NCBI GenBank assembly: GCA_000934665.2
Contig: JYFJ02002621.1
Coordinates: 1 to 64,000, forward strand
Direction of reading: 5' to 3'
DNA length: 64,000 bases
Source of the DNA: Catajapyx aquilonaris
Taxonomy: Eukaryota
The number at the start of each line of letters is the position of its first letter. Within the stretch, counting starts at the first letter, position 1. The notes under the pieces are model-generated. The model made no database searches. It was not told the origin of the DNA and worked only from the letters and a program-made list of their open reading frames with translations. The position numbers and the translations under genes were made by a program. This document shows, piece after piece, positions 28,118 through 62,500 of the stretch.

Positions 28118-30892
28118 TTAAGCGACCTGTGTTGGATTTTCCAGTCTCCCCGAGAATAAAACTATCCCAGATTTTTTGTCCAGGATGAAAAACACAAAGG
28201 GATGATCAGCATAGAATTTTGGCGTATTTCTCGGGTAAATAGGGCCACTTCTACCCACGACTCCAACACCAGTGGCAGCTGCTGCTTCGGTTCCCTTTTC
28301 ATTGCATTCCAGAAATGCTTTCTGCACCACAAATGACACCTGGAGAGCTTCGCTTGCTGTCATTAGGCTCAGGTCAGCGTCCTCAGAGAACATGTCCTTA
28401 ATTCCCATCTGTCAGAAATGGAAAGTTGGGATTGGCATTTCTGATATATTGAGCATATTTGAAAGTGGATAAAATATCCACAGTAAGAAAAAGCGTGGTA
28501 AATTCTTACCCTTTTTAACGGATCGTTCAGCTTCATGTCTGTTTCCATTCTGAATTTGGGAAACCGAACTCTGACAAGTGTGTCCTCTAATTGAGAAATA
28601 AGCTTTTCCAAAGAAACTGATCTCAGTTTTGGAACGAAATCATCTAATCCTTCATTCTCGTTAGGGAGCACCACCAGCATTGAAATGCGATTTCCCTGCA
28701 AATGAAATGCATTAGAACTAGCTAGTAGCCTATTATAGCACTATTGAAGCATCACCTTATAAGGCATCTCGAGAACTTGCGCTCCCAATTCGTTGATTTG
28801 GGCATATTTCATATCGCCGTCTTGGTTCATCATATCCACTTTTATAGTCGATGCGTTCTTGGACAGGTGAAAATCAAATGGGTAAGTAGAGGAGCCTTGA
28901 AACTGCCTAACCCATTCGCCTTTGAAATAGATTCCGTTGACCAGAACCATACGAGTCGTAGGAGTCAAGTCACCTGGAAAAGTGCAAAATGTCCAAAATG
29001 ATTCTGTAAATTCCTCCATGAGACGTATCACACAATATTACAGTTCCTGTTCAGGAACTGTAATATTGTGTGATACGTCTAGGGCACCAAAATATGTCAG
29101 GAAAGTTTGCATAATATCCCGTCGGAAATCTCCCATTTAAAAAAAATAATTATCTGCGAATACTTGACCAGGCATCAGATTTTTTTTTTTTGGTATAGCT
29201 ATGTAGGCCTATTTGGTCATACGAGGATATTGAGGACCTCCTCCTCAATATCCGCTGGCAACCCCATACCTGTTGGGGAAACGCCGCACCGTGAAGAAGA
29301 AGAAGAAGATGATGATGATGATGATCACTGATCAGTGCTTCCCAATTTCTTTCGTTGGCGACCCCAAAAAATCGTCTTGTAAAATTTGCGACCCCCTATG
29401 TGCGCATTTCGATCCGCAAACATGAAAAGACAGGTAAACAGTGAAATGACCTACTTACCTTATGGTCATAATTTTCAAGAAAGATAGCATCATTTTGTGA
29501 AAATAATTTGTTACCCTTCCTCGCGACACCAAATATTATTTTCGCGACCCCAAATGGGGTCGCGACCCACAATTTGGATGATGATGACGATGACGACGAT
29601 GACGACATAATATCCTAAATATGCTGCTATCGGCTGCTATGTAATACAGTAGATACTACAGTTTTATGCTACTTACTTGAGCTGATGAGATTCTTAATTT
29701 TTTCATGCGTCACCTCCTCAACCCATGAATTGATTTTTTGAGCGGTTTCTTCACTCTGACTGAAATCTACATTTTCTGCTTGAGAATGGAAACAATCAGA
29801 CATATGTCTCTGGTATTCAGAAAGAAGAATAAAGTTCTCTCCTAGAAAAATTCGATTGGCCATCTCCAATGTCGCGTCTTTCAGCCTCTGTCAAGAATAC
29901 AAAATGTCTCATGAGTGCCATATCCAGCTTTAAATGGCCAAAATGGGAACTATTCTATACTGATACAGTATTAAAATTAGACTCTCGTATTCTGGCTTAT
30001 CAAGCACCGAGCCAACACATATGAACTTTAATATTGCATAATTCAAAGTTTCAATTTTGATATCCCCCTCATCAGGGTCTGGTAGCTCAGCTCCATAACA
30101 ATTTACGGCTGGAAAAGGGTCAGAATGTTTGTTATTCATTGTTGAAAACAATACTTGACAATAATGAAAAACAAACTTTTCTGGCTCTTTTCCAGCCGGA
30201 ATGTTTTCCTGGATGCCGTGAAACCAGACCCAAGAGGGTCAAGTGTAACTATAATATTGCTACTCTCCCTTTGGCTAGGCAGGTCAAAATCACACAATTT
30301 TCGCAGAGTAGACAGTATTGGTTTGTCTAAACTTGTGCAACACTCCTTTTGAGAGGACTACTAGTCGGCAAAGCAAAAATGTGTCTCGCCAGTTTTGATG
30401 TGCTAAGTTTAACTTGACTTTGAAAATTTATTAGTAACTCAAGTAATTTGTTAAAAATGAAATCAGCTCACCCCAAGAGATTCTGACACTCTCTTGAATC
30501 GAATGCATGCTTTTTGCTTGTTTCCTTCCAGAAGAAATTCATGCTTGATCTGCCCTGCCGTCTTTCCAGATGATCCCATGTAAACCATACCTATTGCTTG
30601 CTCCAGACTGAGCGGTGAGAAGAAGACGTTGTTGGTCCCATCTTGTAACAACTGCCAAAATTAGTGGTTTATTATTTTTTCATCTATCAAAAATGCTGAA
30701 ATATATCGCTTACATTGAGAAGGTCATATGTAACTTTAGAGTTCCCTTCTATTATCCTCTGCCGCCGCTGACCCACCACACAAAGGTACAATGCCGTAAA
30801 CAATATAACTGAAGAAAAAACGTAGGTGATAATGATCAAGTTTCGAAGTTTGGAAGAAAAAATGGCAAGACCAACTAACCTGAAAGTCGCAT
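28118..30892 (-). CDS. Serpin G, secreted, predicted trypsin-type inhibitor (RCL EKGTEAAAATGVGVVGR|S, P1 Arg)
   Basis: Exons 30892-30880, 30808-30714, 30651-30472, 29887-29677, 28973-28756, 28695-28510, 28408-28118. Canonical hinge and FYADHPF. Confidence 0.94.
29232..29606 (+). mobile_element. RTE-like LINE 3' tail interrupted by a hAT-like MITE (29332-~29578), in an intron of serpin G
   Basis: ACCCCA..TGGGGA stem then a (GAA)n(GAT)n tail. The tail is split by a CAGTGCTTCCCAA...gggtcgcgacccacaatttgg element and resumes as (GAT/GAC)n at ~29578. Confidence 0.6.
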
Positions 30893-32279: not shown

Positions 32280-32528
32280 AATGAACTGGTCATATTGATC
32301 CCTTTACCGCTATTTTAGGCGGTAAAGGCCAATTTTGCATATCCCGTAGTTTCCAATCGATTTTGTTCAGATTTATTGGGTACGTAGCCCACCCCAATGG
32401 GTGCAAAACGTGCATAAAATGAACTGGTCATATTGATCCCTTTACCGCTATTTTAGGCGGTAAAGGCCAGTTTTGCATATCCCGTAGTTTCCAATCGATT
32501 TTCTTCAAATTTGTTGGGTGGGTAGCCA
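32280..32528. repeat. tandem direct repeat, two ~110-bp copies (period ~139)
   Basis: aatgaactggtcatattgatccctttaccgctattttaggcggtaaaggcc... at 32280 and 32419. Confidence 0.85.
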
Positions 32529-34320
32529 AAAGGGTTGGGCAAAATGATTAACAGTAGGCCTACAGTAAAACTTCTATAAGTCGAATCTCCATGGGACCGG
32601 GAAAAACCTCGAGTTATAGAAGATTCGAGTTAGAGAAGTTTGGCTTTTTAAAAGCACAGAACTCTATAAGGAAGCCTACCTTTATATCCCGCGATGAAAG
32701 GTGTTCAAAACTTAAAAATAACTCTCACTATCACTCTTACAATGTTCCTCGTTGTTTTGGTGTAAAAAAAAAAAATCTCCGTTGTGGACATTTGCCTACT
32801 CTTAGATTCAAGGATTCAATTGTCACAATCGAGCCTCAAACTCTTCTTTCGGTACGTCTGGTAGACGGAGATCAGGAAATTGAGGCTTTCTGTACATGTG
32901 GCCTACTCTCGACCCTTCGGCTGGGAAATGAGACAATATTCCGTACTCGCCAACATGAACTTGGACTTAGGGAGACTGAAAATGCATTGATATCCCATCG
33001 TAAGGCCCTGCCTGCACTTCGAGTTATAGAAATTCGAGTTAGGGAAGTTTATTTCCTATTATTTTACATTGTGACCAACCAAGCTCGTCATTTTATTCGA
33101 GTTGTAGAGATCCGGTACCTCATGCTGTACCCCTTGTAGCCTCGTACCTCTGATATATAAGGTACGCCTGGTAATTTTTAAGAGGGACGCCCATTTGCGG
33201 CCCATGTAAAGGGTACATGGTGTAAATTAGGGGGTACTTAAGAGGTACCCTTGGTTAATAAAGGGTACGAAGATTTGGTACCTCTTGTTAGTACCTGATA
33301 AACGGCGTCGTATTATGAGGTACTATATCGCCCAAAAAGATAGAGACGATTTTGCATTTGACTCAAGTGCAACTTGCACTTGAATCAAATGCCAATCGTC
33401 TCTATCTTTTTGAGCGATATAGTACATATCACGTGATGCGCGGGGAGATGCGCAGACCAGGACATGTCACGTGATGCACAACTGCACATGCGCAGAAGTC
33501 TCGAACTTGGCCTCGAACATTCTGAAGTGGCCATCTTGTCATGTTATGTGAGAAGTGTGATGCTCGCCTTCCCCGCGGCTCTTGCGCTCTGTCACCCTAT
33601 CGGCCCATCATATAATTATATCCCGGCAGGGGTGATGAGCACCTAGGGTTAGTTACGATGTAGTCGGGAGCACAGTTTACAAGAAGAGTGTCAAGGAAAA
33701 TAACAAGCTGCAAGCCTGCAACCCCGACCAAAGACATCAACTCTCATCGCACGCATCTGGTCATTAGCTCTTGATCTGGTATACGCATTTTCACGACCGG
33801 CCTACAGTGCTGGCCATTACCAGGAGTGAATAAGCCATTACCAGCAGTGCATGCAGTTTGAGGCTGGGACGTGGATGCTCAGAACCTGGTAAGCTTGTAT
33901 ATGTGTGTTTGCTAGACTTCATAAAATGTCCGAAGCAGTGTAGGTGATGCATTTTCAATAGAAACCACATTATTAAGGCAGAACTGCCTTAATAATGTGG
34001 TTTCTATTGAAAATGATGTTAACGGCATGGGCCATGGGAGAACAACTTTGTTCTCCCATGGCCCATATGCCGTTAACATCATTCATTGTCATTCCAGCCC
34101 CTTATCGGCTGTCATGGTCAATAGTGTATTAGTGCTGGAGATGTGAGTGGTGTCAATAATAAATGTATAGAATCCTCATTGCACGTTATGTTTTGTGCAC
34201 CCCCAGAATGGTGTATTTGCACACACCCAGTTTAACACAGTGTGAAAACAATTGTATTAAAGCATTGATAAGGCACATGACAATTTTAAATTAAATTTGC
34301 AGATTACAAGAGAGGATGTA

Positions 34321-37300
34321 ATGGCATCTTCACATTCACGACAGTTCTTCAAGGTGTGCCGTGGCACTGTTAAAAAAGCCATAGTGGCAGACACCATAGA
34401 GGAAATAAAAAAGAAAGGTATGCCAGCATAGTTAACCCCAATGGCTATGACTCAGCTATATAATTTTTTTTGTTATTCGCAGCCAAGAAGGCGCTCAACT
34501 TGGCGGAGAACAGTCCAATTGCTGTTTTCCTTGATGATGGCACAGAAATAGATGAGGAGGATATCTTGCCATTCCTCGTACAAGGCACACAACTATATAC
34601 CTTCTTCATGCAGATGACAATGTACGTTGAATTGTTAATTCTGGAGCTTTGGGTAGGCCTACTGCCATATGGAACATGTAAAATCTGTATAAATCAAACT
34701 TCTTCATCTCAAAGTGTTCACTAAGGTGAACAAAATTAGACAGGACTTATCTCAAAAAATTAGGATTTCCACTTCTAGAGGATTTAGCTGGTGGGTGTTA
34801 TATAGCTTGATGGATATAGATAACAGAATACTGTAACGCAATACAAGCTGAAGGAATATGAGTGTTGTGTTCTTGATAAATAAAGGTTCATTAATGCCAA
34901 TGAAACAAGTAGACAATCACATGCCTAGTAGCCTACATCACCCCAACAACACCCACAAAAACCAATATAAGCAATAGGAGGCAATCAAGATTTTGAGAAT
35001 GTTGGTCATAGTTACAATAATATTACATAACAGTGCCATGTGGCATTACGAAAAGAATGAAGTTACACTTTAGTCACACTTACGACAAATCTTGTGGATC
35101 ATGCCATAGCATCAAATTCAAAGCATATGCACAAAGACACCCTGACCTCAGCAAGTCATCCTAAAATAACTTGCCAATTCTGGGCATGCCTTTTGCCTGA
35201 ATGAGGGTGGTTACTTAATTGTGATATTCTCACATCATAAGGCAGAAGGTATGCATTGAGATGTATTATTGTTGTGTGCAATAGTAACTTTGTGATTCCA
35301 GTCACTATCCTAGCTTGGGCTGTAAGCTGATGCTGTACAAATTATTTTTGTTCTTGAAGATATGACCAACCAATTAGTGGCTGGTCTGATTAACCACAGT
35401 GTCCCAATCATTCGCATTCGTAGGATTTCACTAGACTCATTTCTTCCTTTCAACAGAAACCATGGCAATCTAAGAAAAGCACGGATGATGCATCGCCTAT
35501 GCTGGTGGACAAGAACAGCATCGCAGCAGGTAATTTGCTAGTAGTAATTTAAAGAGAGTAGTAGTTTACCAGAACTAACCTATAGTTCTGGTCAGGTTCT
35601 GGTAGTCATTTGCTAGTATTATAATAAGCCATATTTAACCCTTTGACGGCGGAGTTTTTTCGGCTGTTTTCCTGGTGTAATGTCAGCCTCCGTCAACATC
35701 ACTCTTTACTGCTTCAGTTTACCTAGATTGTCATATCTCCTTTTAAAATACTCTCTGGTGCTATTATTTTATGTACTGTCAACATAATTATAAGTTTCTA
35801 CGCCATGCATATATAGTGTATCAAGAGGCATAGTGTATCAAGAGGCATAGTGTATCAATGCAGATATGTTAGTCAGATGAAATGCAAATTTTCCTTGTGT
35901 TCATTTAGATGAAACTGACATGATCGTTGATGAGATTTATGAGCAAGCCCGAAATCGGTATTCAGCGCCAGCCGACCAAGGAGTAGCCGCTGGTCAACTA
36001 CATCCAGCAGCTGCCTCATCCAGCAAAGTATGGCAGCATAAATGTATAGAATGTGGATTCTTCACTCAGAAGTATTACACATTTGTCAACCATATGAGTA
36101 CTATAATCACTGTTCAAGGCGTATTCCTCTCATGTGCTCCCGATGTGATACGAGGTTTAAGTTTCTTGCAAACTACAAAGCCCACCACCATACATGTGTA
36201 TCCAATATCACTGATCGTTTACCCTTGCCATTTGACGAGTCAGACGTGGTATGCAATAATGACATTGACAGTGAGCAAATGACCATTGATGACATTGACG
36301 ACATTGACAGGCTAGTGAGTCTTGCCGTAAACTTGAAGGGCACCACAGGGTACCAAAGGTAGCAGTTGACAGTGTTATTTCAGGTGTGAGGGACATGTTT
36401 GCTGAGAAAGGTATCTCATTGGACACCTCTTTCATTCGATCAGATAAGGCTCGAAAGAAATTCTATTCTGCAAAAGGACTGTATATACATACCACCAAAA
36501 GAGGTCATCTTGGAGGGTGGTGGAAAGGCATACATCATTCCAATGAAAGAGCTCCTTAAGCATTTGCTGAGCCACCCTGACTTTGCTACCTATTTTCAGA
36601 AAGGGTCTTCATGTTCACCCGATTCTGCTTTGATAGATTACTCTGATGGAACGCGTATGCTGTCACACCCCTTAGTAAAGCAACATAAATCACACCTCAT
36701 TCAAATTGTCCTGTACTGCGATGATGTTGAACTTGCTAATGCTCTGGGGATGAAAAGGGGGAACCGAGGCAAACTGACAATGTTTTACATTATGTTTCTG
36801 AATGTCCCACCTTCAGAAAGATCCAAGCTGAACAACATTTTCTTGATTGCTGTAGGTCATGCTCATGACCTGCAGTCAATGTCAAACAGAGAATTGTTGT
36901 TGGCTGATGCTATCAATACAATCAATGAGTTAGCTACTGAAGGCATTGTGTTTGACACATACAGTGTGGGACAGACCAAGTTTTATGGCTTTTTAGTAGC
37001 ATTTATTGGTGACGCATTAGCATGCAATGGCATTGCAGGTTTTAAGCAGTCTTTTGGGCCAAATGTTCGAAGAGGTTGCAGAACATGCAATTTAAATTGC
37101 AAAGACTTTTCAAAGTATATGTATCACTTTAAGTGCCCTTTAAGAACTGACAATGAAATTGCTGAACAAGTTAAGAAATTACAAGCATGTACTTCCATTA
37201 CTGAAAGGAAAGAGATGTCCTCAACATATGGCATTAATGGCAGGTCAGTTTTGGCATCATTTCCATACTTCTCCCTCACTCAAGATTTGCTGTACGATCC

Positions 37301-40300
37301 AATGCACATCCTTTTGGAGGGTATTGTTCCCAAGGAAATCTCCCTTTTCCTAAAATTATGTGTCCACACTATAGGCAGTGGTTCACAAGGGCACAATTAA
37401 ATGATGCTCTATTGCTCTTACTGCCTTTCCATATCACAAGTCAATAAGTACCAGTGACTACCCTCGTCACTTTGAAAGTGACTTGATGATGGTGTCGTCT
37501 GCAAGTTCTGCACTGGTGCTTGTGTTACACTTACCACTTATTCTGGATCGCTATATTGCATCAGAGAAGCACAAAGAAGTGGCATGCTTGTTGCAACTGT
37601 GCCAAATTGTGCAAATGGTTCTGTCAGTCTTGTCACCAGTGCTGACTCCCGAGTCTTTTATTGCTCTGGAAACACTGGTAGCTAGCCACAATTTGAAGTT
37701 TATCCAGTGTTATAAAGCTAAATCATACACACCCAAATTTCACATGCTGGTACATCTTGTGAAGCAAGTAAAAGAATTCGGCCCTGCTAGGCACCATTGG
37801 GCGATGCGGTTTGAAGGCAACAATGCCCTCCCCAAGGGCAAAAAGTTCAACAATTTCAAAAATGTACCTTTTTCTGTGAGTGAATTTTATCAGGTGAACA
37901 TGTCATATCATTTGTGGGATGAAAGTGGGAGACCAAAGAGAGTAAAAGAAAGCAGAAATATTGTTGAAGGTAAACCAATTATTCTGAGTGATCCCCAGTT
38001 AGTGCCTGCATCTCTAAACAGTGATGCTGGTGTTGTGCATCTCTCCTTTCCCTCAGCAATAGTGAAAAATGTTGTGCTCAGGAAGGGAGATGTGATCACA
38101 GTTGGCTTGCCAACTGAAGATCCCAAATTTGTGAGCATATGTCAAATTGTTTTGCTGAATGGCGAAGTTCATTTTTTGTGTAAATTAATGTATCTTATCA
38201 AGTTCCTTGCCAAAGCCAACTGTTTTGTTTTGGGCCAAACTAGCCACACCTGCACCTTTCTTTCCAAAGACCTTCTGTACCCATGGCCACTCTACACCTA
38301 TGTCATGGGAAGAGACATATGTGCAATCCCACAATGTATCCATTTTTCTGGTAACCTCTTAAGATCTTAGCATTGATTTTCATTAAAGTGCTTAATTATG
38401 TTTTATTTCTTTACGTGCAAGCTGCCAATTGTTTGTTATTACCATTTCAGGAACGACGCCTGCCGGGAAAGTTTGTGTTGCCCTCATTTTCCTTGTATGT
38501 GCAACCATTGCTAAATGGTACGTTAGCAAGGAAAGAGTAACAGAAAGGATTTAGTGACCAACTGAAAAATGAAACTATACATTACCTGGAGTAAGTAATC
38601 TACTACCAGAGACTGCTGCTGTTTCATCATGTGGGTATAGCAATCTTTATTGTATTTTTCAGTGAGTCAAACTTCATAGAAGTTGGATCAAGTGCATCAA
38701 GGCGGTGGGATTACAACGACTTGGGGGCAGCAATTGCTGACAAGTATCCCGATATGCTGTGGGATTCCCCAAAGCCAGGGACCAAAGCATGTGGAAAAGC
38801 ACGGAAACATGCCTGGGTAAATAATTCAAACAAATCATGAAAAATATACTTTCAAAAAATCTGCTAACAATTATTATGCAGGAAATCCACTCAGATATAA
38901 TGATGGAATAAATTATAGAAAATTGGTGGAGGTCTTGCCATGTTAGTACTTTGGAGCGAGTGCCTATAATTATTTTTTCTGTTCATTCTGCTCTATCATC
39001 TTCATCTATAGAGTCTGTTTATCCACCGGCTCTCACTGAGGAGAAAAGTGTCCCGCCTCAGGAGGAAGAAAAAATCAGAAAAAGAGATGCCACAGGAAAA
39101 TGAAGCGGCAAGCAGTGGGCAAGAGGAGATGGATGTAGAGAGTGCTCTAAAAGAGCTACAGGTATGCTTAATAATGCACTTAATCTACTTTGCATGTCAT
39201 CAGCTGTAAGCGTTTCAGCAAGGAGTAGGGGAAATTAATTTTCTTAGCTGACCTGCTCTTGTAAATGTTCATTTTCCTTTCTGATATACCAGGGTGTCCC
39301 TTACTAGTCGCCCGTTCGTCCGGCAGTGCTGTAACCCATATTGTTTGAGGTGAAAGTAACAATATGGGTTACGTCACTCCGCGACGACATCGCTCCAATT
39401 CCCTCGTCAAATCGCTCACATGTAAACGCACCTTTAGGCCTATAGCATAATTATGCCATTACACATGCACATGATTGAATTCCTGTGTATCTGAAGAAAA
39501 TGACTCCACTAATAGGCTGTTATTTTATGAAATGTGCTTTTCATTTCTAGGCACTTGAGAAACACAATGCAGTCAATTATGACATTCCATGTGTATCGCG
39601 CATGCTGTCAGTGACATTTTCAAGGCGGATGACCAATGTCGTGGCATCTTATCTGCCAACTTACTTATTGGAATCAGATTTGGTAAGTGCTATTAAATGT
39701 GTATGCAGTTGATACTGCAGTGCCTAACATTTATTCCTTCAATCACATTTTTAGCTCTCTATGAGGTGGAACTCCGGTTCCAAACAAAATTATCTGATAT
39801 GGAGGAGAAGCTGCAGATGGTGAAGCAAGTATTTCAAGATCAATATTCAGCACCTGGTGCTACGTTTATCGATATTGATCACCATCTGCGGCCTATCTTG
39901 GCAGATACCTGCCTCATAACAGAGGTATGTTTGTCTTTACTCACATTTAACTAAGTCTCTCCATACCATAACAGCAATGAGCAGCCTGAATATTATCTTA
40001 GGTCAGGATCACTTTTAATGTTGTAAAGTTAGTGACTTATGTTGGAGCTGCTGATATCTAGTGTGTCTTCCAAACAGTATGTGCAGGTCCACTGTTATTT
40101 TAAAAAAATTAGGAGTGAACATAAGTAGATTTCAGATAGATACTGATCATGGCTTTCATGGTTCATATCACAATTTATTATTGTTGATTAACTCCGATAA
40201 TACCTCCATGGCGCTACCTAGCATGCTGACTTTAGTTGCTTGGTGGCTCTGTTGTTGTCAGGTTATTGCAAATTGAGAAATTGTGTACAATCCGAGCGCA

Positions 40301-40945
40301 ACCTAGCAACTAAACAGTCCGCTCGCTAACACCGCCCACCTGACGCGTCTGAGCGCACTGGTTCCTTGTCTATGAACCCCCTCTATGGCATTTCCGGACA
40401 CAGTTTCCTTTGTCAAATATGTTTGTCTTGGTCCCCTCTATTATACCCCCTACAAGTTTGTCTGCTGAATTCAGAAACACCCTGCATAAGTATTCCCATG
40501 TTATATACTTAACTCTGGTGGGATCCTTGTTTTCAAATGAATTTTTACAGCACATCCCAAGTTATAGTTATTGACAGCATAAATCACTAGATCTATTCCT
40601 AATTTGCAGGCTGAAAAATCAGAGTATGCTGTGGCGATTGCACCAGGGCCACAATTGTTCTTTCCAAAGGATGGTAAGAAACAGATATACGTCAATGATC
40701 CTCCACAGGATGTAATCCTCCGGGAGGACTGTACAGTGGAGAGGGCCCTGATAATGTGCCTGGGGGTATACTACATCGAAGGTCTTGATTACCCAAGCGG
40801 ATTCTCCCAGCTGTTAGGATTGTTACAGATGATGTTGGTACCCAAGGACGAATTTTATAAGGGGTGGATGGCAAGCAAACTAACAGTATTGCTAAATCAT
40901 GTGTCTGGCAGACAGGGGGGGCAGACGAAGAAGAAGAGGAAGTAG
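34321..40945 (+). pseudogene. CIDE-N domain + SAMD3-like transposon accessory gene (spliced, frameshifted)
   Basis: Exons 34321-34417 and 34483-34621 give RQFFKVCRGTVKKAIVADTIEEIKKKA...VFLDDGTEIDEED (CIDE-N pattern). Further exons: 35457-35529, 35909-36027, 38451-38590 (LPGKFVLPSFS), 38663-38816 (YNDLGAAIADKYPDM), ~39011-39161, ~39551-39682, ~39756-39924, 40610-40945 (CLGVYYIEGLDYP...LLQ). Frameshifts near 34598 and 38520-38550. Confidence 0.7.
35909..38370 (+). pseudogene. EnSpm/CACTA-like transposase with N-terminal C2H2 zinc fingers, frameshifted
   Basis: CIEC..VNH and CSRC..KAHHHTC fingers; LYCDDVELANALG, FYIMFLNVPP..RSKLNNIFL, GDALACNGIAGF..CRTC, YGIN, DPMHILLEGIV, TPKFHMLVHL..FGP..W.MRFEG. 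Split over ORFs 35920, 36042, 36399 and 37483. Confidence 0.8.
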
Positions 40946-43611
40946 AGTGCTGAGCCAAATAATATAAAATATAAAACTCGTCCTTGGGTATACCAACGTC
41001 ATCTGTACAATCCTACGACCACTGAAAAACAAGCTGAATATACTACTAAAAAATTAGTAAATAACCTTAAGTCATCAATTATTAATTATTATTTGTCCAA
41101 CAAAGGGGTTTTTAACTTTTAATTTGGACAAAAAATAAGAGTACTGAGTAATCTGTAACAACACTACTGTAACAACTACTACTACTGCAAGCGGACAATC
41201 ATCATCAACAGCATGAATACGGACTTCCTGCACTGGCCCATGAAGAAGTAGACACTGGTCAAATAAGTGCAACTGGGACTTCAGAAGGAACACAGCAATC
41301 AGCTGTCTCTTCCAGTGGGTCAACATAGATGTATAAAGTGTGGATTTTTCACTGCTAAGTATCAGACATTCGTAAAACATTAGCCAAATAAATGTTTTTT
41401 TTACAATTAACAAAATGATCTTTTGTGAATCTTTTGTGAATTGGTTACCAACCTGCTGGTATTTCTCTTATACTATAATATAGTGATGGCATTGCATGTG
41501 TGGTGGAGGGTGGGGATTAGGGGGTTAAGTTCCGCTGTTGACCAAGATTTTCAAATCTAAAACTAACCTAACCTTACTGAGGCCGGTGCAACTGGCCCTT
41601 AGGCGAAGTTCGACTTATAGAAGTTTTACCGTATTTGAATCACATGGTACGGTGTAGCTATTTGCTCATGTGCTGGATATTGGCATGTGATGTAGTGGGG
41701 AAGGTATGCCATTTGCAAAAATTGCGTCGTGGTCAGCAGAACACCATGCATTCGTCGTGAAGGATTTTTTTTTTTCCCTGCCCAAAAAGGCGAAGAAATA
41801 TCCTTAGGGACATCAGGACAAAGTCCTCAACCACCGGACGTTCATAAGGTGGATGAAGCAGTTCTGGGACACAGCTTCAAACCGGGACCAGAAAGCACTG
41901 GATGTCAAAGAACACAGAGGACCCCTCAACGGGTACAAGAGTTAGGCAATGCGCTATTCCGAAGTCCTCAGTGATCGGCCATTTGAAGCTCCGTTGAGGG
42001 GTCTGATGAGTCCTTTCATCCAGTGCTGTCTGATCACGGCTTGAAGCTGAGTCCCAGAACTGCTTCACCCACTTTATGAACGTCCGGTGGTCGGGGACTT
42101 TGTCCTGAGGTTCCAGCCCAAAAAGGCGAAGAAAGATACTTTGTACAGGTACAGAGGACTCATTATTTTTAAAATAATCCTCCACGACGAATGTATGGTG
42201 TTCTGCTGACCACGACCCAATTTTTGCAAATGGGAAATGGCATAACTTCCCCACTCTGGCACATGCCAATCTCCTGCTCATGTGCAAATAGCACCACCGT
42301 ACCACGCAATTCAAATACTGTTATTCACTTTGCCCAACCCTGGTACATATCATCAAGAGCTATATCAAGAACACTCATTTATAAAAACCACATGTCAGGT
42401 TGTACTTTTTGACCTTGAAGGATGTAATGTCAAACTTAATTTTGAGACAGGACACTCAACATTAATTATTAGATCAATTTAAGTGACTTTACAATCGAAT
42501 AGATTCACTAAAATCAAAATGGCACTTTTGAATCAACTGTATTTCAATAAAGCTAAAATACTTATTGCAGGGGTTGCAATGTTCAGATGCCAAAGTGCAA
42601 TTTGCACTCCAAAATATGTTATCTGCATTCCAAACTGAGCTTTGGACTGCAATGTTTGCATCCAGTTGGTCCTGCTTTTTACCATGACTAAGCCCAATAA
42701 TTAAAAATTAAGCACTCCAACTCCAAATGAAAATCTGGAGTGTGAACGTTGCACCTGGACAAAATATTTGAGATTCAACCCCTTTAATTGACCAAACTGT
42801 GATCCATAAGCTCAGACAGCGTGATCAATCGGACCTCGATGCATGGAAGAGTTATTGCTCCTACACCGAGGTACATGCCAGGGGCCAGCCTGAATCTTAT
42901 TTCAAGGGTGACCTCCCACTGCCACTACCTATTGCCCGCGTCATAATCAATATACGCAACCTGTCGTCCTCCTTCTATATTTACAAGGGAAAGTTTTGAA
43001 AATGGCTAAGGATGAAGTTTACAACTTGTGTAACACGGGGTTAAACCAGACTCTTCACCATATATTGTTGGAATGTCCTATTTTGGATTACCCCCATCTC
43101 AAAAAACTGCCAAAGGCCCCTCTGGTCTTTCAGTGCTGTACCTAAGGAACTTGCTTATCAGATTTTTCTTTTCTTCAAAACTGCTATGAACCTGCTTAAA
43201 ATGTACCAATACTGAGCGATTTTTTCCGGCCTGTAAATCGATGTCACGATGACGTTCCATGCATGTGTAGCAGGGCTAGACTGTATTACCTTTATTTTGC
43301 ACCAATTTGTAAATTGTATGTATACATGTATGGGAGTGGAGCTCCCCCGAATACCCTGTAAAGGGTGGCAATGGGTACTTACCAAACAAACAAACAAACA
43401 AAAAAAAAACTTTGATCCATCAGCTAAATCTTCATCCCATTGTTCTTTTTTTTATGTGAAATCATCTACATAAGACTGAAGTGTCTCATAACTATACAGC
43501 CTTTCCCAAAGCCTGCCAAATTGGAAGGCTGCATTTTTTGGGGTCCTTTTTGGAATGAAACTTTAATTCATAATAATAGTCACCATGATTTTCCTCCACA
43601 AACACCAAACA

Positions 43612-45774: not shown

Positions 45775-47718
45775 ACCTACACAATCCGAGAAGATTTTGT
45801 GGCATTATTAAGTCAAAATATCTTGGCTATTATATCAGACCCAGCCACAGTGTCCACTACCAAAATGAGAAAAATAATCTGGAATGAACTTCTGGCCCCT
45901 GTCAAAATAAAGGCCCTTTTGGCGGGCATTCCCTTGCTCCAGTGTCGACCATAATATATTACTTTATTACTGTAGAGTTCGTTCCCAAACAAGCCTGCTC
46001 AGACAACCAGCATAAAATCTACAGTATAGTAACAGTAAATTCAAAGATCAATTATACTACGATCGAACACAATGAGCGTCCTTGAAAACCGCCTTTAGGA
46101 GTGAAGTGTCGTCATGCATGAGGAAAAAAAAGGACATTGTCTACCCCATTGCTAACAGAATTTGCACCTGCCACCCTCCCCCACCCCCCATTCTAGCCAG
46201 CACTCGATAGCAAGAGTCGAGTGTAAAGGCCGCATTTGGTTTGGGGCTGACACGACAGGTGGTTCTCTTCGCCCCATCTTTGAGATAAACAACATTCCAG
46301 ATATCGTCTTTCTCGCCAACCATGACGCATTTCAGCTACATCGTTGCAGGTTAGTGGATGTGTATGTTGCGACGTGCAAGTTCCGAAAACTTACGTCTGG
46401 GAAAACGTTAGTGACACTTGATCACCTTTTGACATCTGGCCTTATAGCGCAAGGGGGATTATCTGGCTCTAATTTTTTTGTGTGTGTGTATTTTAATCTC
46501 CCGATAGTAGAGTATATAAACGGATGCGGTGGTTTCTTGGGTTCGTTCTGTAACGGGAGGACAGACGTTCGTGGGTTGTGTACGGAATTGTGCCAAAAAT
46601 GCATATGTTTCATGGAGTGGGTATGGCAGGGCTGATATGGAGTGCGATCGGTCCACGTGAGTTAAATCTAATCCTGTTCTGTACGATTACATGATAAGCC
46701 TGTCAATAGCAGGTCATTCTAAGGCAAGGAATTCTATAGGGATCCGTGCTTTGTGAAATATTCAAATCGTCCCGATTTGAATATTTCACAAAGCACGGAT
46801 CCCTAGAATTAAGTTCCGATTTGACCTAGGTCAGAACCAGCAGCTTGTGAATGCCACGTGTTTTGGATCAATTAATCCAAATCCTGTCATGATCACAAAA
46901 TTAGCCAATTTTATTGTTACATTTTTGCATGAACACCTAGGCGGGAAGCACAGGTAAGTTCACTGACACGGCCATATGCCGGTTCTGTAAGCTTCGCAAA
47001 CCGGAATTTACAAATGTCTCCCACATTGCCATGTTGGAGACAAGATAGTCCTTGAGAAACCAGTATCTGTGACATACGTGCTCTGACGCACGTACAAATG
47101 CTGGTATCATTGCGTATGGATGACGGAAATCTCCAGAAAATATATGTTCACACTTGGCATATGAGCAATATTGCAAAAGAGCGCTGTTTTAACTTTGTAC
47201 TAAATTCGTCGAAAAGTCGTGTCACTCTTATTCACAACCATGTAATACCGACTATACCGTACCAAGTTCGGTGCGAATATTTGAAGATGAGTTTACTTTG
47301 CACGCAAACCAGTGGTGACGGAATCGATCATTCTATTCCAGGGGTTACCAAACCTCGTTGGTAGCCACATATACACACCGCTTCTTAGAACCCTTCATTA
47401 CGTAAATGCGTCGTACTTTCTTCATTGCGCAAGACGAACAAATCGACTACGGTGTTTATTTGCCGGCCTTTTGAATATGGAGTTGGCGCGGGGTGCATCC
47501 GCGCATGTCACACACCCTCCTCCCAAAGTGGAAAAATCCTTTCAGGGTCAAACAAGCGAAGCACGACATGGCGTTTCCTTTCCTTGTGTTTCCCCAGCAC
47601 CCAGCTACGTCAAGTCCTACTTCAATAGGCCACAAAAACTGTTTTCGTGCCAGCTAGGCGGTGCCTGACTTTCTGACTAATCGATGAGAGTGGCAGCCAC
47701 ATGATACACGTCACAAGT

Positions 47719-50700
47719 ATGCATATCTTGAGTACCGGTAGATTGTTTATGTCGGAAGAAAACTGCATACATTCCCTAGCACTGTACAGTACCATCGTGT
47801 AGTATGCAGCCAGTATAAGCACAGGGTCAAATATGATGTATACTTTACAGCTGTTCGGTAGTGTTGTGTGTTCACAGCTGGCTGCAGGATTGCATCACAT
47901 ATATTGATTTGTTACAGGTTGCCTTCTGCTTCTCATGAGTACAGTGCAAAGTGACCAAAAATCAGCCATGGATGTCGCAGCCGGTAACAACAAGTTTGCG
48001 GTTGAGATGCTGCAGGTTTGTAATGCTGCATGTCATTTTAAACTAACATTGTACTGACTCAATTATGATGTTACAGATATTGCTGGATAGCAGCAAAGGT
48101 GAAAACCAAGTGTTCTCCCCATACAGCGTCAACACAGTGCTAGGAATGACTTACATTGGCGCAAGGGGTATGACAGAGAAGCAGATACAACAAGGGTTGC
48201 ACTATCCTCCAGACAGAGACGCTGTCCTTAGGGGTCATGAGGAGCTCCAGAAGACCTTGAACGTAGGATATGACAACCATTCTGTTCAAACATTATGATA
48301 AAATGTGAATGTGGTGGTTCACAGGGAGACCTTAATGTGACTCTGGAGACTGCCAACAAGTTGTACCTCGCAGAAGAATATGAACTGCTTCCCGATTACG
48401 AGCAGAAAGTCAAGGAGCATTTTGATGCAACTCCAGCACGACTTGACTTTAGCAAGAATGTGGAAGCTGCCAAAGTCATCAATGATGAGGTTGCTGAAAT
48501 TACTCATGACAAGATAAAGGACCTTATACCAGCTGGTAAAGTACATCACATTGCTTGCGGAGTAAATAACTTGGTGGTGTGGGCATAACATATTTGCCAT
48601 TTGTATGAACAAAGATCAAGGCTCAAATCTTCAATTTTGTCAGATCATGTATTGTCAATACCTACACATAATTGGAGATTTTCCATAATTTGCCTCTACA
48701 CAACTGGGCCTTAGTGTCTAGCTGATGCCCTGCTTTACAAATCATATAATTTACTCCTGAAATTACTGGAACAAATAAGTTGGACCCTAACCTTGTTTAT
48801 TGGATTGCAGATGCCCTAGATGATCGCACAAAGTTGGTGCTGGTCAATGGAATTTATTTCAAGGGTCTATGGGATCTCCCATTCAAGAAGTCACTAACAA
48901 CACCCCAAGATTTCTACATTAACACTGTGGACCCTCCAGTCAAGACACAAATGATGGCCCAGGAGGCTAAGTTTTTCTATGCTGAAATTGATGAGATTGA
49001 TGCTCAAGTGCTCTTCATGCAATACCAAGTAAGTTTTCACTCTAGGTCGGGCTGTCCATAAAGTGTGTTACATTGGTAGTTGATAACAGCATTATCTTTC
49101 AACTTCTTCAGGGTGTTAACATTATCTTACACACATAAAAGGCCAAGTTTGTTGGTATGTCCCATTGCCCTCCCCCACTACCAGCCCCCGGACACTCATA
49201 CTACCTTCTGATGTTATCACCTGCCGTGGAGTTTTGAAGAAGGTGCTCACTTGAGAGCGCCATGAGACATTTCAGTCTCTGGATAAGTGGCGACCCTGCC
49301 GGACTAGGCTGAACTTTAGAGATACAAAAGGGAAGCGCTACATGCGGGCCCAAAATGGCCACCGGCGCCCATGTTGGGTCCCCCAATGTAGCGCTTCCCT
49401 TTTGTACCTATAAAATTCAGCCTAGTCCGGTAGGGTCGCCACTCCCGGAGACTGAAATGTCTCATGGCGCTCTCAGGTGAGCACCCGCTGCAAAACGCCC
49501 CGGCAGGGGGTAGGTGGGAGTGTCCAGACCTTACACCTTACTTATATGACCATGCCCACTACTGCCCCCTCCCCACCACCACCCACTCCCCTCTACCTCC
49601 ATGGTTACCATAGCACGGGTTCATGGTGCCAATTTTAATGCAGCCCAGTCGAATTGAAATCAGCTGATGTCATGATATGGTGTTTTGTGTGGTACACTTA
49701 GGCTGCCTGCATCTTTCACAGTAAAAACCACCATTATCAATTGCTTACAAGCACCACAAAAAAACTCACAAAAAACTGTTGTCACTGTAGCAACATTACC
49801 CAGGTCACTTAACATACAACCTTCTACAACCCAACATACTTGTTCCCCCTTTTCTCTGCAACAGAGCAGATGCCTATTCTGATTTACTATTACGAGTATT
49901 ACTATTTGCAAAACTTAATTCAGGATCCAGAAAAATGCACAAGATTTTGATTATGGTGTAATATATTACTCTGTTTATAAGATTGTGCTTGTACTAAAAT
50001 TTGAAGAACAAGAAAAACAAATGTCTATCTATCTCATCATCTCATCTCTATCAAATATCTAGTACACTTCAAATTCCAAAAAAGTAGTTTCCAATCTTAT
50101 TGCTTCTGATTCAGATGGACAAGGCTTAAAAAGTGCCAGAAATCATAGCGACCCCTTCATTAGGCTTCCCCCTGCTTTAAACTTTTGTAACAATACATGA
50201 TGATGATAATTTGGGTAGTGCAGACTTCCTTGAAGGTATTGCATGGACCTTTGTTTTGTGCTCACAGTCTGTTGGTTTCGTCGCAACGAAGGTGAAGGGG
50301 GCAGGATTTGATCCCCTGGACCTACCACGTGTCTGACCAGTAGAATAACCACTAGACCACTGTGCCCTCTGTATCAATAAATATTTAACCTAGATAACTC
50401 AATATTTATTTGTGTTTCAGGGAAAGAAGGTGGAAATGGTATTCATTCTGCCTCGTGCCAAGGATGGCCTGACCGACACCCTGAAGAAGTTGAAAGAGAG
50501 TTACTCTTGGGAGCAAGTGGTCAAGGCAGTTTCCAAGGTTAAGGTTAGAGTAGTCCTTCCCAGCTTCAAGATTGAAGCATCAATGAAGCTTAGGGAGTCT
50601 TTGGAACAGGTGAATATACATATAGAGCATAATTACATTACTCGTAATTTTTAAAGCAATGATGTTACTAAACTTGAACCTTATTTAGCTGGGAATGGTG

Positions 50701-53166
50701 GATATGTTCACCCCAGCTGCAGACTTCAGTGGAATTTCTGGAAAACGTAACCTGCTGATATCAGAAGCAGTGCAGAAAGCATTCATTGAGGTGAATGAAG
50801 AAGGTGCTGAAGCTGCTGCTGCAACAGGTAAGCAGTCTCTTTATATGGGTTTTTGTTGTGCTTTTATTGGAGCTTCATTTCAAATGTGAATGTCAGCTTT
50901 ATAACAACATGCACGCACTCTTATTTAAAATTTCATTTACGTGCTTGCTTCTGTAGGTGCGGTACTTCGTGCCAGAAGAGCATTAGAAGATGTAATTGGC
51001 TTCAGAGCTGACCACCCATTTTTGTTTGCCTTAACACAAAAACATCCTCTGAGCGCACTATTGTTTGTGGGAGCTTTGATAAAGCCAACCTCTGAACCTG
51101 TTGTATCACTGCATGAAGAATTATGATTTGGTGTTTGTGTATGTTGAGGTTCAATGTGATGAGGTGTGCTACAAGGGCAAAAGGTGTCATCCAGCTGACT
51201 AACTTCCACTAACATAGGCCTATCAAATTATAATGCACTCTTTTGCATTCCTGTAGGTCTTGTTATGGTTGGATTTGCTCGGCCATCAGCACCCGACCTA
51301 GTTCACAATTTCAGAGCTGATCATCCATTTATATACACCATCCGTGAAGCACAGACCGGAACTGTCCTGTTTATGGGGGCATACCAGTCACCCAAATAAA
51401 ATTTGATCTAATTTGTAAAGTCAAAAATGACAGGACTAGTGGTTGACAAGCCAGTTGTGTACTTGTGTGACGTAACCTGGTGGATTAAGACGTACCACTT
51501 ATGCTGCATTATGCAGTGACATCAGAACAGTGCAATGGTGTCATAACAAAATGTTCCCCATATAATGTGCCTTTTGTCTCCTATGAAGCTTAGGCTACAG
51601 TTTATGTTGTAACTTGGAAAGGAATAAAAACAAATTCTGACAAATTTATGACAAACAAATTTGTGACTACCCCACAGGAGTGGTTATCACCAACAAAATG
51701 ATGGTGCTGCCCAAGGCTACCTTTAAAGCAGATCATCCATTTGCCTTCTTCATTTCTGATGCACTAACTCGGACAATTTTGTTTGGTGGAGTGATGGCAA
51801 AACCTTCCACAAACTAATAGGTATATGGATTCTCATCCTTCTTGTTACAGCACTAATCTTTGAGAATGCAATGTTTGGGAGTTCGCACAGTGTGTGCCAC
51901 TTTTCGAGTTTTTATGCGCACTGTATTTGTCATAATTCCATCTGCAGGTATAAGCTTCGAATTTCTGGTTGACATCCCAGTGCCTGCATTTGAGGCTGAC
52001 CATCCCTTTGCTTTTTTCATTCACTCAGCAGGGACCATCATATTTTCAGGCATATATGTAATGCCACCAGATGTATCAACATAAGTCTGAATATCATGAT
52101 TCCCATTAAAACTGGCTTTGAAGCTTGCCTTTAACAGCCTATGCATTCACATTTTGCTACCTTGCCTGCATCAATGTTATAAAGCCCTTTAATAGTGTAT
52201 CAAGAGTTGAATTTCAAAACTATCAGTTCACCCTTGTTCACATGTACACTAGTTGTTGAAAAAATTGCCTTGTACCCCCATGCAGGTGTGGGTGGAAGCA
52301 TGAGTGAGCGTGACTTGATTCATGCATGCTTCCATCCGTGCCTGTTTGGTTGGCTGCTTGGCACTGCCTGTGGGGGTACAAGGTAGTTTTATCCAGCACT
52401 GGACCACGGGCAGATTTACTGGTATATTCAGTAGGTGTATGTATTAGCAAGGTATTAGTGAATCTACCAGTTAGCTGTGCTGATCAGAAACTAATTTTAG
52501 CACCATTCAGATATACTGAACATGTTTTGAGATGCAAATCGTCAACTTTTATGTCCTCCTATTAGAATCTTTGGGAATAACTCAGGCATTATCATTTTCA
52601 GGTATTGTTATAGAAGCAGTTGCTTACTACCCACCACAATTGTTTGTGGCAGACCATCCATTTGCGTTCTTCATTCAAACTTCTGAGGCCATTCTGTTTG
52701 CTGGCACCTATGTAAACACACCTTCTAGCATGTAATGGGTTGTAAGTTAATTCATTGACTGTTCCTATGCAATAGTGACTGCTCTTCAATAAAATTTCAT
52801 TTCACAATGGATTTCTTAAACTGCCCTGAAGTCACATGTACTATGTTTTACGTTTCTTTTTTTGTGACAATCCCTCTGTTGAACTAACAGTGTCTTCTCT
52901 ACTAACATTTGCACCATCACGCACACATAAATCCAATGACGCCATGCTGAGCACATAACAGAAGGAATGCTTAAAACGCTTTCAGCACATATATATTCAG
53001 AATTAACACATGCTGTCAAACTCCTGTAGGTATTTCAATGATGCGTTCTTTGCAAGAGGAATTCACTTTCTTTGGGAACCACCCATTCATATTTGCAATA
53101 CAATTACACACAAGCAACACCACCCCTATACTATATTTGGCAGCATTCCTGAGACCTCAGAGTTAA
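47719..53166 (+). CDS. Serpin H (Spn42Da/SRPN10/serpin-1-like) with alternative terminal RCL exons
   Basis: Common exons: leader 47719-47737 (or 47833-47857), 47918-48015, 48077-48262, 48325-48535, 48811-49028, 50421-50609, 50689-50827 (ends [11 protein letters not shown]|gt, phase 1). Six phase-1 terminal exons follow. Confidence 0.93.
49190..49527. mobile_element. foldback MITE (~150-bp inverted arms) in a serpin H intron
   Basis: ggtgctcacttgagagcgccatgagacatttcagtctc...gggaagcgctacat is mirrored by atgtagcgcttccc...gagactgaaatgtctcatggcgctctcaggtgagcacc. Confidence 0.8.
50290..50369 (-). mobile_element. tRNA-derived SINE head fragment
   Basis: Minus strand reads GGCACAGTGGTCTAGTGGTTA...GGGGATCAAATCCTGCC (A/B-box-like). 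Confidence 0.45.
50957..51126 (+). CDS. Serpin H alternative RCL exon 1 (GAVLRARR|A ... HEEL*), proprotein convertase inhibitor type
   Basis: ctgtag acceptor, phase 1, FRADHPFLF, stop at 51126. Confidence 0.92.
51257..51399 (+). CDS. Serpin H alternative RCL exon 2 ([11 protein letters not shown]..., P1 Phe)
   Basis: cctgtag acceptor; [35 protein letters not shown] overlaps the stop. Confidence 0.9.
51678..51817 (+). CDS. Serpin H alternative RCL exon 3 (GVVITNK|MM..., P1 Lys)
   Basis: ccacag acceptor; [31 protein letters not shown]. Confidence 0.9.
51948..52084 (+). CDS. Serpin H alternative RCL exon 4 (GISFEFL|VD..., P1 Leu)
   Basis: tctgcag acceptor; [33 protein letters not shown] at 52105. 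Confidence 0.9.
52286..52386 (+). pseudogene. possible degenerate alternative RCL exon of serpin H
   Basis: catgcag|GT acceptor at the expected spacing. [23 protein letters not shown] resembles a decayed ADHPFLF; early stop. Confidence 0.35.
52602..52735 (+). CDS. Serpin H alternative RCL exon 5 (GIVIEAV|AY..., P1 Val)
   Basis: ttttcag acceptor; [33 protein letters not shown] at 52788. Confidence 0.9.
53030..53166 (+). CDS. Serpin H alternative RCL exon 6 (GISMMR|SL..., P1 probably Arg, short loop)
   Basis: cctgtag acceptor; [38 protein letters not shown] at 53479. Confidence 0.85.
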
Positions 53167-59500: not shown

Positions 59501-62500
59501 AGGTTGTGAGAACTGCTCAAGGCCAATGGGGTGCATGAGACATGCAAATTTTCTGGGTAAAAACACACCTGTCTTAGACATGAAAGGGAAGACTTGCATT
59601 AGGGGGCGCTTTGGAATGAATCAGCCTCTATAAGCAGAAAACAAAAATACTGCAAACATTATATGTACATCAACAAGTATGCATTTAAATTTGAAAATAA
59701 TTCCTCCTTCATTATTATCAATACCAACAATATGCTTCTACTCCAGCCTGAGTAATACAGTATACAGTACAAGGCTGGTAACCTTTCTAGGGGGAGTCCC
59801 CAGACCCTCTGTTGTCTCAGTTTCATGAAAATTTCCCTACTCTGGTCTCTGGGTAATAAGGTTGGAAAAAAGGAAATGCTTGGTCGAGTTTGTGACCTCC
59901 TGAGAAATAGGCTTATGCCTAATCCACCAGAGTGCTCTAGTATGCCCTGCTAACAAATCATATTACATCACCTAGCATTACACTTAACACTGTTATCAGG
60001 GGGTACTGATAAATTTATTATTTTTCAGGCTTTTTCAAAGCAGAAACGGACAGAAAACATTGTCTTCTCGCCTGCCAGTGTCAACTTGGCTACAGCCATG
60101 CTAGCTGAAGGGGCTAGGGGAAGAACTGCTGAACAACTGCACTCCTTCTTGGAGCTCCAGAAGGACAGCCGGGACTATGGATACAAGAAAATGTCTGGTG
60201 TGTTGGTATGTATACAATTGGCATTACTTGGCAGCATGGCACAAAACCATATAGATGTGTACCATTACAGAGATCACCAAGCAAGCACAACAAGATCAAG
60301 TCAGCCAATGCACTATTTGTAACTGCAGACATACCAATAGATGGTGTTTACAAGGACAGAACAGCCGATATATTTCAGTCTGAAATAAATAACATTGATT
60401 TTGGTGACACACAGCGAGCAGCCAAGAAAATTAATGACTGGGTAGCGCGCGTGACTGAAAATACTATTGAGCAGCTTGTTACGCCACGTAAGTTTCACAT
60501 ATAAGTGAGTTCCAAGTAGTTCTAGTTGTGTTGATGTTGATACCCAAGGTTGACTACAAGCATTGCATGAATAACACACTAATCAAGTATATATAAGGCC
60601 CCTCTCTGAGGAGGAGGATATAGGATGATATAGGAGGAGGGTGGAAAAGATTTCGCACTTCCCGGCGTCTCAGATGTCTCAGAGTAACACCGTTGGATTC
60701 CTTGTCCCAGAATTACCAATGACAAAAATCCTCATAATTGCGAACAGCCGTTTTCGAGATAGCCAAAAGTCGATTTTTCGGCTATAATATCAATATACTC
60801 GCTTTGCGAGGGGGGGGGGGNGGGGGGGGGGGGGGGGGGGCTCGCAAAGCGAGTATATTGATATAGCTTCAAGTGTGATCTAAGAAATATTCTCCATGAT
60901 ATACTATAGCATTATATTAGCCAATCCAACTTAAGATGCTGTTTTGTATTTCATATCATCATCATCATCATTAATAATAATAATAATAATAATAATATGC
61001 AGGGTATTATTCTCCAGGAACTATTTCCTCCACTTAATACTAGTTTTAATGATAATCCATGTTCTGCATTTTAATAAACAGGAACAACACATTCTGAGAA
61101 AGTACAAAAAATTATAGGGTAAATTGTCACAATTTTAAATAATTGTGCTTTGTGAAATTTTCTTTGCCTAGTTTACTGTCAGACATTTCTAGACGCATGC
61201 CAACTGGATGTGTGGTGGGCAAATCAGTAGTAAGAAGTATTATCTTTATGATGTAGCTATGCCTTAACTGCATCTGTTGCCTGTGACAAAAAAAAAAATT
61301 GCACTTATCGACAAAAACTCTAATGCTTATTTTACATAATATCATACCCACAAAATTTCAGCTAATGGCTGCACTTAAGGTACTCGCTACTTGAAAAACA
61401 AAAGAGATAACATGCAACATCATAGCCAAATCAAGTGTACTTAACTTGATTGTTATTCTCTTTGCACAGTAAGAGTCCTTTCATACTGTATATTGAATGT
61501 AGTGCAGGTAATTCTCAAACATTAGTAATTTTCACACTGTGGGAAAAAAACATTTAAGGTAATTTGATATTCTTTAACAAAATTACTTAGTTGAGAATTT
61601 AGGGCCAGTTGTATGACTGCAAAATAATGAGAATTTCTGATTTAGTATTGTGAATATACATGCATACAATTTGAGATTTTCCTCAATTTGTGTTCATACC
61701 AATCAAATTCACAACACATATTCTGATATAATCATAGATTTCCTCCTTAGGACTTTCCCTTAATAAGCAAAATGTAAAATTTTCAGATGCATTGTCTCCT
61801 GACACCCGAATGGTAATCAGCAATGCTGTATACTTCAAGGGGAAATGGAAACACCCATTTCCTCCTACATTCACAAAGCGAGATGTATTCACAACTGAGA
61901 AGGGGGAAGAGGCAGCCTACATGATGCGCATACAGGGCTATTTCTCTTACAAGAAATTTGACCCACTTGACTGTGCTATCTTGGAGTTGCCTTATGCTGT
62001 GAGATTTGCTTGCTTTTCTTGCCATTCAGAGCATGGATTCTCGGGAGAGATGTTAATTTTATCTAGCTCCATTGTGCAAAAAGAGTAATTAAAAAGTCAA
62101 TGAAAAAATCATAGCGTTTTCACACTTCACTACAGGAAATAATTATGTTTGATCTGTTAGATATAAATTTCCCGAGATTCCAGCCATAATTATTCCCTTG
62201 CCTTTTAACTAATATTCAAATGCTTGGAATTTGATTTGCAGGATGGGGAATATGTTATGAACATCATCCTCCCCAACGGAGTTGTCAATATGGCCCAATT
62301 TACAGAGAAACTGAGCAATTTCAATTTGGCAGAGTTGCTGTCTCGTGGAAAACTTACGGAAGTGGAAGTCACTTTGCCAAGATTTAACATAGAGATGGCA
62401 CAAAGTCTCACTGGGATTTTCAAGCAGGTAAATACTCAGAATAAAGCCTCATTGCTTTAGAAGGAAACTGACAGGATAGGCAGAATTGTAGACATTGATC

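Follow-up and report, generated by a model that had tools for sequence, protein, structure and literature searches.

An inactive CACTA/EnSpm-Plavaka-type transposon of Catajapyx aquilonaris that may share a CIDE-N domain between its transposase and an accessory protein

Within the superfamily of En/Spm and CACTA transposases, splicing is known to produce more than one protein from a single element. In maize Spm, tnpA to tnpD are generated by alternative splicing of one transcription unit (PMC1636069). In SmTRC1, an animal CACTA element from Schistosoma mansoni, most of the 64 discontinuously aligning expressed sequence tags (ESTs) skip the transposase open reading frame (ORF) and encode short proteins (PrA and PrB) from flanking exons; longer messages contain the transposase ORF followed by a second ORF (PMC1636069). 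Those accessory proteins have no detectable relatives according to that paper, which reports no N-terminal domain shared between the products (PMC1636069). A two-product design is therefore of a known kind in this superfamily. Here we analyze positions 34321-40945 on the plus strand of a 64,000-nucleotide (nt) window from Catajapyx aquilonaris, where the window is the whole stretch of DNA under analysis and all positions are window coordinates. Our tentative reading, held with some doubt, is that this locus is an inactive animal transposon of the CACTA/EnSpm-Plavaka kind, organized as a single composite unit with a shared CIDE-N domain.

Ten exons (A-D and S1-S6) with canonical GT-AG borders and pyrimidine tracts were read from the plus strand, and their borders and phases were then checked by script (Table 1). 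The coding span begins with an ATG at 34321 and ends with a stop codon at 40943-40945. In our reading, three small 5′ exons would encode CIDE-N and exon D would add a linker rich in Ala and Ser, after which the transcript could take either of two routes. Along one, the frame would run unspliced from exon D into the C2H2 fingers and the DDE transposase, ending at the stop at 38368. Along the other, 36028-38450 (2.4 kb) would be removed as an intron, and the linker would be joined in phase 0 to S1-S6. An intact copy would then make two proteins with a common N-terminus, CIDE-N-finger-transposase and CIDE-N-S. The two products would presumably interact, and it is possible that they pair and co-assemble through CIDE-N.

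CIDE-N is known from the apoptotic nuclease system and from the CIDE proteins of lipid droplets, where it serves as the pairing module; in DFF40/CAD and DFF45/ICAD, CIDE-N to CIDE-N pairing brings a nuclease together with its regulator. The domain at this locus is the same Pfam domain (PF02017) as that of the DFF40/DFF45, CIDE, and Drep proteins. It differs in being divergent and in its company, as Pfam identified no DFF-C, CIDE-C, or CAD nuclease part among the window ORFs scanned. The Drosophila P element offers another likeness, in that keeping or removing one intron yields an 87-kDa transposase and a 66-kDa repressor with the same N-terminal domain, one of which regulates the other. Two element proteins thereby share an N-terminal domain through intron retention. 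However, the P element belongs to another superfamily, its shared domain is a DNA-binding THAP domain, and its shorter protein is a truncation rather than a fusion to a second coding region.

With En/Spm, the locus has in common a transposase apparently of the same superfamily as TnpD, as reflected in its relatives' weak matches to Transposase_21 (tnp2) and DUF4218. It also has in common a transposase ORF flanked on one side by 5′ exon(s) and on the other by 3′ exons for a second protein, which are reached by splicing the ORF out (PMC1636069). Such splicing over the transposase ORF, for which the original prediction for this locus cited maize, is documented for both maize and SmTRC1 (PMC1636069). 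In contrast to En/Spm, the shared 5′ part here would be coding and contain a folded CIDE-N, no CACTA termini were found in the stretches searched, and splicing is inferred rather than observed. The second protein also showed no relationship to TnpA, although no search aimed at this was made. SmTRC1 is likewise an animal element of the same superfamily with a transposase ORF that is skipped by splicing (PMC1636069). It differs, in a comparison made by description only, from the window element with its C2H2 fingers and CIDE-N.

The evidence for CIDE-N comes from two adjacent exons. The Pfam profile (76 positions, gathering cut-off of 23.5 bits) matched the exon A ORF at profile positions 4-30 (15.0 bits, E 0.026) and the exon B ORF at positions 29-67 (22.4 bits, E 1.3e-4), with each match falling below the cut-off alone. 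The halves follow one another directly in the profile, in the same order as the exons, and meet at a junction of compatible phase. Because they were scored separately, their total of 37.4 bits against the cut-off of 23.5 is only a rough sum. As a control, none of 150 other stop-to-stop window ORFs of at least 75 amino acids (aa) matched CIDE-N at E ≤ 0.1; this control left out 12 of 162 ORFs, namely eight element ORFs that were scanned separately, one transposase-frame ORF, and three overlapping the reverse-transcriptase ORF described below. The final nine profile positions were unmatched in any frame, including an alternative frame at the end of exon B. Pfam found nothing in exon C, and phmmer searches of the Protein Data Bank (PDB) with exons A and B singly returned no CIDE-N chain. 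We take the CIDE-N domain to be real but divergent.

Exon D is the hinge of the proposed arrangement. It starts in phase 1, which is the end phase of exon C (a match with a chance of 1 in 3), and ends in phase 0, which is the start phase of S1. As originally predicted, its frame reads through into the zinc-finger and transposase ORF: the frame past 36027 stays open into the first finger, and no stop lies between exon D and the fingers. The predicted phase-0 fit between the donor at 36027/36028 and the acceptor at 38451 is likewise present in both sequence and phase. In the frame that agrees with exon C, the end of exon B is likewise in phase 0. A word-based protein search with exon D and finger 1 gave no relative even at E ≤ 10.

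The transposase assignment draws on a large family. A 336-aa frame at 36390-37397 had 3529 relatives at E ≤ 0.001 (phmmer, 1.84 billion representatives), including 1306 with E ≤ 1e-10, of which 88 had E ≤ 1e-30. The top match (P0001; E 1e-91, 50% identity) is labeled an uncharacterized Ixodes scapularis protein in its source. The counts among relatives that follow rest on the best 150 of these 3529. Transposase_21 (tnp2), Plavaka, and DUF4218 were each found in eight of these 150. The best Transposase_21 score was 27.9 bits against a cut-off of 28.6, two proteins reached the Plavaka cut-off of 26.3, and none reached the DUF4218 cut-off of 27. The sole Pfam match of the window's own transposase ORF was to Plavaka, at 14.3 bits. 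These weak scores place the family between the curated CACTA and Plavaka models. The transposase, which has two N-terminal C2H2 fingers, appears on sequence grounds to be a DDE enzyme of the CACTA/EnSpm-Plavaka type. In an alignment with eight relatives, the motifs YCDDVEL, IGDALAC, and DPMHILLEG fell in conserved blocks, to which we presumptively assign the catalytic D, D, and E. Metagenome scans with the transposase alignment and with a 321-aa C-terminal ORF yielded no relative, nor did a scan of viral DNA for related DNA.

This copy of the transposase is decayed. When seven relatives were compared with the window by tblastn, the transposase was read in frames 1, 3, 2, 3, and 1, which amounts to at least four frame changes, and a stop is present at 37402. 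The frame changes and the stop imply that the copy is dead. The ATTAAA hexamer downstream of the transposase (Table 1) is a possible poly(A) signal, which would be in keeping with two alternative fates, splicing or read-through followed by early polyadenylation.

The S exons provide the second part of the argument. S1 aligned with residues 659-679 of P0001 (57% identity over 21 residues, E 3e-4) and with residues 617-632 of P0004, the fourth-ranked relative (50% identity over 16 residues, E 0.002), by BLASTP. S2 aligned with residues 697-737 of P0001 (39% identity over 41 residues, E 8.5e-10 in the 150-protein database). These matches mark S1 and S2 as protein-coding. A pattern search found the order of transposase followed by S in two of the 150 closest relatives, P0001 and P0004. 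The conservation of this order across distant animals makes S a component of the element. The open frame of S1 (38355-38540) contains no in-frame ATG, and its acceptor is a good one, in phase 0. As S1 is coding by conservation yet lacks a start codon, it must be joined to some coding exon 5′ of it. The only GT near the transposase end (38351; donor 38350/38351) is in phase 1, as against the phase-0 acceptor of S1. Given these phases and the phase-0 end of exon D, the simplest in-frame link is from 36027 to 38451, and we infer use of the 36027 donor. The original prediction had placed the transposase within an intron of a second gene. Its layout of 5′ exons, transposase, and start-less 3′ exons is real, while use of the 36027 splice is presumed.

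The S exons also show decay. S1 has an in-frame TAA at 38538-38540, and the S4/S5 junction is off by one unless a weak donor at 39686/39687 is used. An alternative end of S1 at 38517 was rejected, as its phase does not fit S2 and the homology with P0001 and P0004 runs to 38590. No S exon had a Pfam match, and the nearest Atlas clusters to S6 were unnamed eukaryotic proteins of 110-116 aa from Chordata and Cnidaria (scores 0.96-0.97). Among named Atlas clusters nothing useful emerged for S6 (score 0.90, no family). Word-based protein searches gave no match for S6 and only P0001 itself for its residues 655-750, a PDB sequence search with S6 gave no meaningful match, and the predicted structure of S6 was unusable (pLDDT 44.7). 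With no Pfam match and only unnamed Atlas clusters, the "SAMD3-like" label originally applied to these exons was not confirmed. No SAM domain was matched by Pfam in any window exon, and the N-terminal module here is CIDE-N. S is probably an accessory protein conserved between distant animals.

A second, isolated fragment, from the 5′ end of a related transposase, lies downstream of S6 at 41306-41380. By tblastn it matched the end of exon D and the first finger with 68% identity over 25 aa (E 6e-9). The homology crosses the donor position, passing from Ser-rich linker to finger, and a GT (within a Val codon) occurs at the homologous place. The fragment goes with a Ser-rich frame (41173-41328) and is interrupted by repeats of other kinds; it may be left over from an older copy or from a tandem insertion. 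When the element was compared at the DNA level with the remainder of the window, no match emerged, not even at 41306-41380. The continuity of the protein homology across the donor argues against a transposon boundary at 36028 and, in consequence, against a transposon nested in a host gene. Judging from this homology, exon D belongs to the transposon.

Several observations weigh against a single composite unit in which CIDE-N is shared. A single decayed copy is the basis of the case. If exon B ends at its strong donor, exons A-D total 428 nt and CIDE-N is off by one relative to exons C and D. The change of frame would fall in a CTATATAC run near 34593-34600, and a weak exon B donor at 34625/34626 (TAC/gttgaa), four bases on, keeps a 144-codon frame open through A-D. 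The claim that CIDE-N-like exons lead to the exon at 35909 is partly confirmed: the matches of exons A and B are colinear, each half scores below the cut-off, and the strong donor is off frame. Of the five GT dinucleotides within 35909-36040, three share phase 0, so the phase match at 36027 carries little weight alone. No terminal inverted repeats were detected between 32500-34330 and 40940-41700 except for an unrelated 21-nt repeat, and no CACT[AG] occurs in 33000-34330, although the ends of the element may lie beyond the searched stretches. Among the 150 closest relatives, none contained CIDE-N (E 0.01 for 75 and 0.001 for the other 75) and none matched exons A-D by BLASTP at E ≤ 0.01. In at least nine of them the fingers start within the first ~36 residues, which suggests that the usual family member starts translation just 5′ of the fingers. 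Exon D itself contains an independent in-frame ATG at 35920-35922, 40 codons 5′ of the first finger. At most, then, CIDE-N was acquired in one lineage, and the transposase could be made even if CIDE-N were absent. These same observations on the relatives and the ATG favor an alternative in which the transposon starts at or just before exon D with its own ATG at 35920, S is still spliced from a short N-terminal transposase exon, and exons A-C are the remnant of a foreign CIDE-N gene or a captured fragment. The exon D ORF, moreover, opens only at 35881, and the fragment at 41173-41380 has a Ser-rich linker and finger with no CIDE-N exons before it. We regard this alternative as somewhat unlikely, given that the acceptor at 35909 combines a good pyrimidine tract with a phase equal to that of the exon C donor. 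Furthermore, exons A-C share the strand of exon D at close spacing, with the 144-codon ORF possible through the weak donor. Among all ORFs scanned, CIDE-N matched only exons A and B, and no further exon of a DFF/CIDE-type gene was found on either strand of the window. P0004 offers an analogy in favor of the composite reading, in that a helical, non-transposase module and, next, a Ser/Thr-rich linker similar to exon D precede its transposase and S1 segment. We presume that the element includes the CIDE-N exons.

The composite reading must also be set against explanations in which no transposase-skipping transcript exists or in which the transposon is an intruder. The gene models of P0001 and P0004, a further point against exon skipping, run from the transposase directly into an S1-like segment, as though S were the C-terminal part of one long protein joined by a short intron. 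We consider such a fusion improbable. In the window the transposase frame ends at the TAG at 38368, with a sole nearby donor in the wrong phase for S1, and 148 of the 150 closest relatives end without an S segment. Both models are partial, with P0001 lacking fingers and P0004 lacking fingers and skipping ~100 C-terminal transposase residues, and so look like predictions over decayed copies. The coherent exon structure and phases of A-D and S1-S6 would instead suit a host gene, consisting of CIDE-N and the S region, with an unrelated transposon inserted in its intron. This appears very unlikely: the finger-coding sequence begins 3 nt past the donor, leaving no room for a transposon end, untranslated region, or start codon, and the homology across the donor speaks against it as well. 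S also follows the transposase in two other genomes, the TAA in S1 disables the supposed host gene as well, and the locus falls within the repeat-rich stretch that separates serpin genes. A broader version of the composite reading would posit a lineage of animal CACTA-like transposons that make transposase and accessory protein from one transcript. Their N-terminal homotypic-interaction module would be shared and exchangeable (CIDE-N here, a SAM-like helical bundle behind P0004), the two proteins would co-assemble like DFF40/DFF45, and cellular SAMD3-type genes with SAM and an S region would be domesticated accessory isoforms. The helical N-terminal module of P0004 had no Pfam SAM match and no meaningful PDB sequence match, and a model of residues 1-80 (pLDDT 65.4) had no Foldseek PDB match at E ≤ 0.001. 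SAM domains made up 10 of 48 Foldseek rows (E 0.9-4.3), which is a lead only, and we consider this broader scheme a long shot. The probability left over falls to explanations of other kinds. As a separate observation, the PDB chains nearest to this low-confidence model of P0004 were SAM and HhH bundles, none of them significant.

Table 1. Features of the element and its flank, in window coordinates. A slash marks a splice junction.
Feature	Position	Strand	Description
Exon A	34321-34417	+	Start codon, CIDE-N first half; donor AAG/gtatgc, phase 1
Exon B	34483-34621	+	CIDE-N second half; strong donor AAT/gtacgt
Exon C	35457-35529	+	Short linker (KPWQSKK...); canonical acceptor and donor; start phase 0, end phase 1
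Exon D	35909-36027	+	Ala/Ser-rich linker; acceptor ...catttag/A, good pyrimidine tract; donor AGCAAA/gtatgg
Read-through ORF, decayed	36028-38370	+	Two C2H2 fingers and DDE transposase; terminal TAG 38368-38370
C2H2 fingers	about 36043-36120 and 36135-36197	+	Within the read-through ORF
Transposase motifs	36714-36734; 37005-37025; 37296-37322	+	YCDDVEL; IGDALAC; DPMHILLEG
ATTAAA hexamer	38382-38387	+	12 nt after transposase stop, inside long intron
S1	38451-38590	+	Acceptor, no ATG, motif LPSFS..VQPLL, donor GGA/gtaagt
S2	38663-38816	+	Canonical splice sites
S3	39012-39161	+	Basic, Arg/Lys-rich; phase 0 at both ends
S4	39551-39682	+	Canonical splice sites
S5	39755-39924	+	Canonical splice sites
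S6	40610-40945	+	Last exon, ends in stop codon
Second transposase 5′-end fragment	41306-41380	+	Linker end and first finger; 360 nt after S6 stop

The window is eukaryotic, with spliced genes and a serpin gene cluster, and the element sits in the repeat-rich gap of this cluster. No recognizable host gene contains the locus, a point in favor of the composite reading. Serpin genes or gene fragments occupy 4130-29037 on the minus strand and 48047-52081 and 59954-62834 on the plus strand, in opposed orientations around the gap, and Pfam Serpin matches were obtained for 31 of the 150 window ORFs scanned. A reverse-transcriptase ORF at 3-926 (RVT_1, E 8.9e-11) runs off the start of the window and represents a retroelement fragment.

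The repeats near the element are of several sorts. Short palindromes, perfect or nearly so, with arms of 29-33 nt and loops of 2-3 nt, occur at 33950-34015, 34020-34078, 29021-29080, 46737-46805, and 33320-33425; two of them stand back to back just 5′ of exon A. Foldback or MITE-like elements could account for them, as could assembly artefacts. A palindromic fragment pair at 41609-42341 and 32531-32585 has inverted arms of 98 nt and 63 nt and encodes a DUF4817 helix-turn-helix (31.1 bits, ORF 41880-42320). Its 21-nt core, GTAAAACTTCTATAAGTCGAA, recurs inverted at 32565-32585. This DUF4817 repeat is a separate repeat family and does not represent the termini of the studied element. Lastly, a 110-nt direct repeat occurs twice in 32280-32527, in copies 138 nt apart that show 95% identity.

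The original prediction knew of no earlier description of such an arrangement, and our full-text literature searches agree, having uncovered no link of CIDE-N or SAMD3 to transposons; Repbase and Dfam lay outside this search. A separate literature search turned up no case of EnSpm splicing in animals other than SmTRC1. The Hydra viridissima genome paper reports 10 and 7 copies of CIDE-N in two Hydra species, compared with 1-3 in other cnidarians, and tabulates CIDE-N among the domains over-represented there together with transposase domains (PMC7642931). That paper calls the domain DNA-binding and draws no connection between CIDE-N and transposons (PMC7642931). An expansion of this type fits a CIDE-N that is carried by mobile elements.

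The coordinates in the original prediction are largely right; the state of the copy, which is dead, the extent of S1, and the SAMD3 label call for correction. The shared-CIDE-N model is reasonable, fits the known biology of the family, and is partly supported. What would be new is a shared N-terminal module that is coding and folded, namely CIDE-N, together with an accessory protein conserved between distant animals. If the model is true, the En/Spm-type design of a transposase inside an intron, so far found in plants and one flatworm, also occurs in a further lineage of animals, and S becomes a conserved accessory protein open to study. It would also explain lineage-specific expansions of CIDE-N, such as that in Hydra (PMC7642931). 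A transposon-borne CIDE-N common to a transposase and its partner would constitute a new way to couple the two proteins of an element.

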